From Octopus vulgaris (Eukaryota), in contig OX597842.1 in the NCBI GenBank assembly GCA_951406725.2, positions 13,826,001 through 13,890,000 on the forward strand: DNA of 64,000 nt. Reading direction: 5' to 3'. Of this stretch, positions 29,601 to 32,600 are shown piece after piece. The notes below the pieces were generated by a model, which was not told the DNA's origin, did not search any database, and worked only from the letters and a program-made list of their open reading frames with translations. The translations under genes were made by a program, and so were the position numbers. The stretch's first letter is position 1. Each line of letters begins with the position of its first letter.

Positions 29601-32600
29601 ATCTCAACTAAGAGTGTTTCAAATACGTAATTCGATATAGGTGTAATTACCCTAATTATATTGATTAATAAATCTATTTATGCTACTATTGTTTCTACTA
29701 CGTCTGCTGCTAGAGCTGTCGTTATTGCTTCTTTATCATCACTATCATCATCATCATCATCATCAATTTCTTCGTCTTTTCTTGTTGTTGTTGTTCCCAT
29801 TCTTCTTCTTCTTCTCCTCCTTCTACTACTACTACTATCACTAGAGCCACCGCAACCGTCGATAATCCAACCACTCCTCCTCCTTCTCCTCTTACTACTA
29901 CTACATCCACCACCACTGCTACCGCCACCGCCAACACTACTACTACTGCTACTACTACTACTTCCCTGCTACTGCTGCTACACTGACGGCAAACGTGATA
30001 TGTGTTTTACCTGCTCCCAGTTCCATCTGATTGTTCTGCTTCAACCAAAATCTCTTCCGGTGTGTCTATCATATTGTTGATACTAAGAAGTATATTCGTT
30101 AGTGTAATATCGGCGGACACATTCGATATCAATGGCAGCATTTTCTCTTGAATATCAACAGCCAAGTCAATATCTTCTGCTTTGAAATACACTGCTTTCT
30201 TGGAAATATCGCTGAGTTTTGTTGAAACCTCCTCAACATTTTCTACAACGAAAAATTTAAAATGAAATTTAAGGGAATTTACAGATGCTTTCAGATGAAA
30301 TATTAGATGCAAATTAAACATCACACAAAAAATTAATGAATGAATGGAAGTTAATGAACATCTCCAAATTCATATAGCACAGAGATAGCTAAATGAGTTC
30401 AGTTCATCATTTATATATTCATTGTGATAAATCGTTAGTGTCTCCTGCTCTGTAACGCTAACTGGAAGAGTGGAGGGGTGGCACAACACTACATACTTGA
30501 GTAACACAGACAATTGATAGTGGATGTTTGTAAATAATGACATTGACAACCAATGACCTGTGATACACCAGCCATCCTAAACAACTGTTAATATGAACGG
30601 AATTATTGTTCAGTTACATGTTGAACTTAAAGGAATATGGGTCGCTGATCTAATGATTAATATTGGTGTAAGTTTTGGCGGAAGAGCAGCAATTTCGGGG
30701 TAGAGGCTAAGTGAAATTCATTGAAACCATGAAGAATGATTTTTACATTCTTCATACCGATCTAATTCCGAAACGCGTCCATAGGTAATCAAATACCGAG
30801 TGAGTTTCATTATTTTTCCTCTTTGTCTCCGGGGGTTATTTTGTTTTGTTTTGTTCGGGAGTTTCTTCTTATCGTAGAAGAAATAGCTAAGGTTCTTTGG
30901 CTGCTATTTCTAAACTTCGGTATGTGGTAAAGCAAATATTTGCTGAACCCTAATTATAATTATACTCGTAATTATAAAATATATATATGTGTATACACAC
31001 ACACAGACACACACACCCACAGACACACACACACATACACACACACACACATATATATATATATATATATATATATATATAGATAAATGAAAGAATGGAG
31101 GCGAACGACGATTTAACAAAATTCCTTTATTCTCGACATATGTTTCGAAGACTGCATATTCCTAATTCCGAAGGAATAAAGGATGCATTATGCCGCCTTC
31201 TCTTCAGGAAAGACAAGGAACTTATGTCAGCATCATGGCGAACAAAAACTTTTAGATGACTGCCCACACGGAGTCCATAGTGGACTCCGTGTGGGCAGTC
31301 ATCTAAAAGTTTTTGTTCGCCATGATGCTGACATAAGTTCGTTGTCTTTCCTGATGAGAAGGCGGCATAATGCACCCTTTATTCCTTCGGAATTAGGAAT
31401 ATGCAGTCTTCGAAATATATGTCGAGAATAAAGGAATTTTGTTAAATCGTCGTTCGACTCCATTCTTTCATTTATCTATAGTAAAAAAAGACACACAAAT
31501 TTCCACACGAAAGCAAGTGATCCCTGCCCTTTGCCCGTAGCTTCAACCGTGTTTTCTGACGTGAATTTGCTACCCGGGTATCGGTTAACCGAATCCTCCA
31601 TACTAGGATAATTCATTCAACTACTTAAATATATATATATATATATATATGTGTGTGTGTGTGTGTGTGTGTGTGTGGAGGCGCAATGGCCTTGTGGCTA
31701 GGGCAGTGGTTGTAGGATCGTGGTTTCGATTCCCAGACCGGGCGTTGTGAGTGTTTATTGAGCGAAAACACCTAAAGCTCCACAAGATCCTGCAGGGGGG
31801 GGGGGTCCCTGCTGATCTCTTTCGCCACAACTTTCTCTCACTCTTTCTTCTGTCGACCTGCTCACTTAGCCAACAGGGTGGCGTCATTTGAAGGCTAAAA
31901 CAATGCGAAGCGCATTGTGACCAGCGATGTTTAGCAACATCTGAGAGCCTGGTTGGTCACGGTAGTCACGGTGATATATATATATATATATATATATATA
32001 TATATATATTTATACCCCTCCTGTTACTGCTGTTACTATTATTACTAATACTACGGTAAAACCATTTCCAAACACTCACCTTTACCGATGTCTACGATTG
32101 TGATGTTCTTGAGTTGTTGGGTGATCCCCTCTGTATTGTAACATTGAGACATGTCTGGTTCTTGCCAGACGCCAGTGAATGGTGAACATTTTGGTGATGT
32201 GCCATACTGATTTGTTGGCATTTCTAGATGTACCATCTCTCCGGAGGAACTGAAAAATAAATATCAAATATCATCAGTTATATAAATAAGCATATATATT
32301 TCATCGATGCCAGAGGAAAGTGAGAAAAACATTGACCTTATCGTGATTTGAACTCATAATCTAGTGTAACAAAGTTAAATACTGTGATGTATTTTGTCAA
32401 TAATCTATTATTTACTGCACCTTTTTATCATCAAAACCAATGTAAAATATGTTCTTACTAAAAGTTAGATTTAAAAAATATTGCCAAATCTGCTTTTATT
32501 CGTTATATTTTGTTGCGACATTTAACATTCAAGTTAGGATGGACTAATATGGTGAATTAAGTACTAAGGCAAGATGCTGCTAGTCTTAAGTGAGTGGGGA

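Follow-up and report, generated by a model that had tools for sequence, protein, structure and literature searches.

A head-to-head insertion of hammerhead-bearing end-pieces, probably of Penelope-like origin, in an intron of an Octopus vulgaris adhesion GPCR gene

The segment at 31078-31629 of the 64-kb window, by which we mean the whole stretch of Octopus vulgaris DNA analysed, is probably a head-to-head insertion of pLTR end-pieces from a high-copy, hammerhead-bearing Octopus family, likely an EN+ Penelope-like element (PLE), whose hammerheads appear to be inert at this site. Two copies lie 5'-to-5' within (TA)n; one ends at 31078 and the other runs about 150 nt further. The locus is best read as Penelope-type in origin because of the (TA)n on both sides, the one-sided tail, the recurrent head-to-head junctions, the high-copy family and the dimer-type stem III, and PLE membership is unproven since no reverse transcriptase or endonuclease (RT/GIY-YIG) ORF is tied to the family. 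The Penelope-type insertion proposed in an earlier sequence-only reading is accordingly supported by target, tail, junctions and stem III, but not by a linked RT or endonuclease ORF.

Structure of the insertion

The core of the insertion is a pair of inverted arms (31078-31277 and 31281-31480), each 200 nt long, 98% complementary and 3 nt apart, which rank first among the 1863 inverted pairs of the 64-kb window. The arms mismatch at five sites (31101/31457, 31142/31416, 31183/31375, 31203/31355 and 31217/31341) and enclose the letters TAG. Measurement confirmed the 403-bp palindrome described from sequence alone, with its 200-nt arms, 3-nt spacer and mismatches, which number exactly five; the span of 31078-31480 given for it holds for the arms, but the insert extends to the right as far as about 31629, for a total of about 550 nt.

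The insert is bounded by the target microsatellite, present on the left as (TA)15 (31052-31081), which is preceded by (CA)n and shares its last TATA with the arm end, and on the right as (TA)10 (31630-31649), which is followed by (TG)14; a target-site duplication is not distinguishable within a (TA)n microsatellite. The left arm (31078-31282, minus strand) is a 5'-trimmed pLTR-like end-piece on the host sense strand, without a tail, and contains the TAG and a 2-nt TG overlap. It meets the right arm (31281-31480, plus strand), a copy of the end-piece that runs antisense to the host gene, at a head-to-head junction (31281-31282) that consists of a 2-nt (TG/CA) microhomology, defined by comparing the window with the loose ends and joints of the family. 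Beyond the right arm lies the one-sided tail (31481-31629, plus strand), where the repeat family continues, as contigs bridging 31480 show. Both arms lack the first 10-20 nt of the family sequence, and there is no third copy of the arm elsewhere in the 64-kb window.

Other inverted repeats occur in the window. A unit at 5370-5680, adjoining (TA)n, has inverted arms of 74 nt (93%) together with a Penelope-type hammerhead that has decayed (+5475-5509), showing one core change, a 6-bp stem I and a palindromic stem III; its sequence is unrelated to the 31078-31629 family, and Rfam returned no hammerhead for the unit. An old palindrome of about 600 nt (54551-55148, 64% identical), possibly a decayed inverted insertion, lies shortly upstream of a (TA)n run, and an inverted repeat of about 205 nt (42602-42802/43064-43268, 88% identical) ends at a (TA)n run and contains no hammerhead by the descriptors.

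A high-copy family with recurrent head-to-head junctions

The family was surveyed by comparing 31250-31628 with the public contigs of X1, X2, X3 and X13, four of the 24 runs listed (four studies, three organism labels). Family sequence was present in 3002, 3621, 2159 and 675 contigs, respectively, and all 30 bins of 31250-31628, arm and tail alike, were covered in each of the four runs. The family is a high-copy repeat, contig depth being no copy number. Contig pieces bridge 31480 (e.g. 31407-31521, 31452-31567 and 31463-31567), and other family copies end in (TA)n exactly at this position, as seen in the loose ends of 24 X2 and 23 X3 contigs. The family unit measures at least about 370 nt, and loose ends further 5' are heterogeneous and (TA)- or A-rich, unlike a shared ORF (agreement 0.6).

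Loose ends before 31281 read on as ...CACTCATTATC(G/A)CTA, and in one family variant ...CACTA stands directly 5' of TGGACTCC. The TAG previously taken for a 3-nt loop, correct in length, is therefore not a spacer but left-arm family sequence, and the arms overlap by TG/CA.

Among the 15 joints listed, 12 are inversions, three are plain deletions and none goes back in direct orientation; in seven of the 15 the sequence departs from the inverted 5' end at 31278-31282 and continues from 31417-31568, and another five switch strand. Three further head-to-head cases were found in family contigs besides the listed joints, and the point at which the direct arm resumes varies between copies, lying anywhere from 31417 to 31597. 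Head-to-head joining is a habit of the family and is usually asymmetric, the 31078-31480 copy being its symmetric extreme.

In other copies the inverted arms all break off close to one point, about 3-18 nt from it, around TCATT, a motif that is missing from both arms at the 31078-31480 locus. Lying just 5' of the position equivalent to 31281, TCATT resembles an initiator motif, and this stop point may mark the start of the element RNA. Relatives of the family were absent from metagenomes (0 matches) and from prokaryote genomes (0 matches) by pattern scan, and a single match in a viral contig was rejected as chance, being in unrelated GC-rich DNA.

Hammerhead motifs

Read outward, each arm presents CUGANGA, a 54-nt stem II region, GAAA, stem III and GUC, with stem III formed by 2 bp within the 8-nt palindrome ACAUAUGU. 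The left hammerhead (31122-31220, minus strand) has its core at 31207-31201, stem II at 31200-31147 (54 nt), GAAA at 31146-31143, a 2-bp stem III within the palindrome and a stem I of 4 bp, a 3x3 loop and 6 bp, and the right hammerhead (31338-31436, plus strand) has its core at 31351-31357, GAAA at 31412-31415 and two private changes (31341 and 31416) that weaken stems I and III. CUGANGA, GAAA and the NUH core stand in type I order in both arms, and the stems around them are present (4+6 bp in I, 11 bp basal in II and 2 bp in III). From these motifs, cleavage is predicted after C31135 (minus strand, left copy) and C31423 (plus strand, right copy).

Searched on both strands with a hammerhead descriptor, the 64 kb yielded two matches, one per arm (+ 31351-31423 and - 31207-31135), and the stringent version of the descriptor gave none in all 60 of 60 block-shuffled windows and none in 2000 shuffled arms. 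The two hammerheads claimed from sequence alone are thus borne out, with a complete type I core in each arm, as is the position of the minus-strand copy with its complete core on the host sense strand. Rfam detected no family, hammerheads included, at gathering level in the 64-kb window and no hammerhead at E<=1 in a 3.5-kb region. RF00163 (Hammerhead_1) aligned with the minus copy over its full length (model 1-45/45, core and stem III matching), but at 21 bits (E 0.0042), below the gathering threshold of 34, with a 50-nt stem II stretch outside the model and on a 121-nt stretch chosen afterwards. Rfam matches to miRNA and snoRNA families near the hairpin were rejected as far below gathering.

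The fold of the left hammerhead beats 199 of 200 shuffles (z -2.4). The C(UUCG)G hairpin earlier proposed to cap stem II is poorly supported, since ViennaRNA favours another register and the closing G of the cap (31390) varies in about one third to one half of family depth.

Variation and age

The hammerhead stems are conserved across the family. Of 40 variant rows listed, 11 lie in a stem (I, basal II or III), and 10 of these 11 retain pairing or gain it, where 5.4 were expected (p about 0.001). The contigs in this test are weighted by depth and come from copies that are related, and so do not count as independent events; when the two window-private sites are left out, 8 of the 9 listed variants do so (p about 0.006). 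The stem pair 31362/31407 covaries as G-C, G-U and A-U, with A31362 tracking non-C at 31407 in four runs (r 0.96), and a stem II variant at 31361 breaks a pair. Upper stem II is variable across the family, including the closing G of UUCG, and the 12 core positions have no variant among the rows listed, which is not significant alone (P 0.10). The change tallies of family variants contain no A>G excess at the DNA level.

Departures from the family majority are at 31341 and 31416 in the right arm and at 31101, 31183 and 31203 in the left arm. Divergence from the family is 3/200 in the arms and 9/148 in the tail (p 0.03), the changes in the tail being clustered. On the calibration given in the accessible part of PMC13282606, where a JC distance of 0.09 equals 25 My, the arms are about 3.5-4 My old and the tail about 18 My, so that the insertion previously described as young is so by its arms but not by its tail.

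The letter at 31320 is common to both arms and nearly absent from the family, which fits either a common template or later arm-to-arm conversion. The copy-private letters at 31320 and 31535 have residual depth in X1 and X2 and none in X3 and X13; a restriction of the insertion to one organism label, considered from these letters, was dropped, as coverage holes prove nothing.

Relation to Penelope-like elements and retrozymes

Three features of EN+ PLEs were found in this family, namely a hammerhead in the terminal repeat, head-to-head 5'-truncated copies and a (TA)n target. The accessible parts of PMC4209133 describe hammerheads in PLE terminal repeats with a palindromic stem III and weak activity as dimers, and opposite-strand hammerhead pairs 100-700 bp apart, Schistosoma included. 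The Octopus motifs resemble these PLE hammerheads (min-HHR; Cervera and De la Pena 2014, PMC4209133) in being type I, with a short proximal stem I, G10.1-C11.1 and a palindromic stem III suited to dimers, and in lying on opposite strands within 100-700 bp. They differ in the 54 nt between the core halves, where the core-motif search in the accessible text of PMC8557442 allowed 7-17, in the absence of the extra nucleotide that follows CUGANGA in the metazoan min-HHR consensus of PMC4209133, and in a stem III of 2 bp plus a tetraloop, which PLE min-HHRs lack. Stem II is far longer than the 4 bp of canonical hammerheads; a long-loop-2 variant in a plant element is among the cases in PMC8557442.

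Inverted 5'-truncated PLE copies, one-sided tails and (TA)n targets are reported in the accessible parts of PMC8557442, and those of PMC3846280 report head-to-head palindromic junctions and pLTRs of about 200 bp in the EN+ PLEs of Adineta vaga. The Octopus insertion shares with these inverted pLTR insertions its arms of about 200 bp, its 5'-to-5' junction with a short overlap, the tail on one arm and the AT-rich or (TA)n target. Unlike the Adineta vaga insertions, it has no ORF between or beside the arms, and both arms reach nearly the same 5' point to give a symmetric 200-bp hairpin; its tail is about 150 nt long, against the 30-40 bp described for PLEs in the part of PMC8557442 consulted. 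It is also like the Hydra-clade PLEs Hydra-1_oBim (Octopus bimaculoides) and Penelope-13_HM, which according to the same source insert into (TA)n and carry a hammerhead near the 3' end, although its hammerhead and flanking sequence differ from those of Hydra-1_oBim. The accessible supplement of that paper records the motif of Penelope-13_HM on both strands, owing to an inverted copy; eight short motifs of the Octopus family had no match in its Naiad/Chlamys/Hydra consensus sequences, where line breaks could hide one.

Neither RT nor GIY-YIG was found by Pfam among the 248 ORFs of the window (non-repetitive, at least 62 aa), and a 49-aa open frame across the left arm, queried as 50 codons including the stop, matched no protein at E<=10 (three candidates). 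A likeness between the start of this frame and the end of GIY-YIG domains found no support.

The head-to-head pLTR arrangement is already in print for PLEs. The Octopus family is a new member of this kind, set apart only by the length of its stem II and tail and by its symmetry; no title or abstract returned by searches of the open literature deals with it, the one relevant paper on octopus hammerheads being the preprint of PMC8557442, and Repbase/Dfam or the supplements of PMC4209133 and PMC13282606 may include it.

The family is rather unlikely to be a non-LTR retrozyme, that is, a tandem unit of about 350-400 nt processed by its hammerhead to circular RNA, of which the locus would hold inverted monomer fragments. 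It does share with such retrozymes a short non-coding unit, a type I hammerhead and a high copy number; in unit length and in having a stem III of 2 bp and a loop of 4 nt it agrees with the invertebrate retrozymes described in the accessible part of PMC7229834, the heterogeneous upstream loose ends are not ORF-like, and a 2026 preprint, in the part available, derives retrozymes from PLE pLTRs (10.64898/2026.07.22.740005), so that the two readings overlap. Retrozymes are tandem in those two sources (PMC7229834; bioRxiv 10.64898/2026.07.22.740005), whereas the Octopus copies are inverted, with no head-to-tail copy in the window and inversions prevailing among the joints listed, a count in which a tandem junction could be missed if the analysed stretch ends short of the full unit.

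An origin as a palindromic MITE, a TA-targeting DNA transposon with an incidental hammerhead, is largely refuted. The inverted repeat is near-perfect with TATA at both arm ends, and Tc1/mariner transposase remnants are present in the window by Pfam (9916-10726, 25288-25638, 39762-40055 and 63552-63752), but the family continues past one arm end into the tail, the junction differs between copies, the centre is linear family sequence, and family variants preserve RNA stems, G-U pairs included.

Host gene and fate of the transcript

The insertion lies in a 1,837-nt intron (30243-32079, minus strand, GT..AG) of an adhesion GPCR (G6-like) gene. Mapping of P0002 by tblastn placed residues 4-40 at 32191-32081 and residues 41-118 at 30243-30010, so that consecutive exons flank the palindrome. 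A query with the 7TM exon returned four proteins among 573 candidates, all of them adhesion GPCRs and 89-96% identical, and the four adhesion GPCR homologues are named from Octopus sinensis or O. vulgaris. The flanking exons are putatively those of HormR and GAIN, by position and motif. Pfam matched only GPS and 7tm_2 in the exons tested and the four homologues, with HormR and GAIN absent; the intron placed between HormR and GAIN exons by the sequence-only reading is therefore upheld by homologue mapping and by GT..AG, but Pfam matched neither of the two domains.

Other sequences in this intron were also noted. The AG that follows a pyrimidine tract at 31481 was rejected as a splice acceptor, its G being replaced in 61-68% of depth in three of four runs, partly by family copies that end in (TA)n. 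A repeat at 31679-31970 is SINE-like by appearance only, with part of it recurring at the start of the window (3-59), and ARAGORN found no tRNA in it. At 30700-30790 a GAAACGCGTC stretch resembles the 3' half of a hammerhead, by chance or as a relic, and neither descriptor found a CUGANGA core within reach. Neighbouring introns of the gene hold inverted pairs at 26838-26952/27639-27753 (95%) and 28148-28227/28555-28634 (89%), which add to its dsRNA potential.

The stem III self-duplex is modelled at -7.0 kcal/mol for the left hammerhead and -3.2 kcal/mol for the right, and the predicted probability of the active fold in a monomer is 0.006 (left) or 1e-5 (right), with stem II folding at a probability of about 0.9 in the left arm alone. 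On these models the hammerhead is built for dimers. Forcing the hammerhead fold in place of the hairpin would cost 118.5 kcal/mol, and host pre-mRNA runs in the order tail complement, right-arm complement, left arm, so that the complement precedes the ribozyme, as it also does in antisense read-through; the host transcript is accordingly unlikely to be cleaved. The ribozymes at this locus are probably locked in a 200-bp duplex, where they should not cleave, and the competition between ribozyme fold and hairpin envisaged earlier was overstated, the antisense arm being made first in either direction against that penalty.

The duplex holds 123 adenosines and is a plausible candidate ADAR target by analogy with the hyper-editing of octopus and the heavily edited palindromic repeats of frog in the accessible part of PMC5625713. 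The effect on the host is likely that of intronic dsRNA open to ADAR or Dicer, rather than ribozyme control.

A host switch, in which the sense-strand hammerhead is released by ADAR editing or by folding during transcription and then cuts the GPCR pre-mRNA, is very improbable. The left, host-sense copy does keep its stem III palindrome and its predicted stem II, and octopus hyper-editing is exceptional, with the frog precedent (PMC5625713, as above), but the prior transcription of the complement, the folding penalty and the low predicted activity of an isolated arm all stand against release. Editing would also strike core adenosines, PLE hammerheads are weak or protein-dependent in vitro in the parts of PMC4209133 and PMC11167929 available, and there is no sign of selection on this copy.

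A fold-back artefact of sequencing or assembly is the least probable explanation, for although the exact centre of the 31078-31480 copy is absent among the contig pieces listed, the arms differ at five sites with their own departures from the family, only one arm has a tail, the flanks are unique with exons on both sides collinear with the homologue, and centres of a similar kind are found elsewhere in the family (31250-31345 in a piece from X2, 31261-31426 in one from X3).

Proposed mechanism of insertion

Under the preferred Penelope-like reading, the units would be pLTR end-pieces mobilised by the RT/GIY-YIG protein of a Penelope-like element. The element-encoded endonuclease would have cut (TA)n, and reverse transcription would have started at internal RNA sites, at the equivalent of 31480 and at the tail end, and run nearly to the 5' region of the element RNA, after which the two strands would have been joined through the 2-nt TG/CA overlap. 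The hammerheads would have been carried along from the element, whose own RNA they serve, probably by dimerising through ACAUAUGU.

The join may have come about by two routes. In the first, to which we give slightly better than even chances, two cDNAs were primed, one per DNA end, which explains the unequal outer ends directly and matches the in vitro behaviour of a PLE that, in the accessible part of PMC11167929, cleaves and extends both strands with two internal RT starts. In the second, which falls a little short of even chances, the antisense strand folded back, primed itself and had one arm trimmed; this route matches the proposal in the part of PMC3846280 consulted and accounts for both the 3-nt loop and the letter at 31320 that the arms have in common, and it requires the later trimming of one arm.

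It is a speculative and improbable extension that the junctions record two-ended priming in vivo by a Penelope-type enzyme with ribozyme-cut RNA as template. The direct arm resumes at most 9 nt from the predicted cut (31415-31432) in 4 of the approximately 11 junction loci listed (binomial p about 0.003), in 1-3 of these four it restarts at the cut itself or immediately beyond (p 0.28 to 0.005), and in one contig the joining letters start at the predicted cut, in a comparison that was post hoc and involved few contigs. As an alternative to cut RNA, the palindrome in stem III could by itself draw template switches to this place.

Significance

The 31078-31629 locus in itself matters little, being one copy among many whose ribozymes are probably trapped. 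The family adds to Octopus a hammerhead whose stem II is unusually long. On the speculative reading given above, the family would be abundant and unannotated in Octopus, its hammerhead being one that standard descriptors and the Rfam cut-off miss. Its thousands of junctions could test how the inverted ends of PLEs form and whether the hammerheads cut the transposition template in vivo; a sharp genome-wide peak of junctions at the first base past the cut would provide genomic evidence, of a rare kind, for cleavage by PLE hammerheads in the course of transposition. The family also points to an easily available supply of near-perfect dsRNA within introns, in a lineage where A-to-I editing is extreme.
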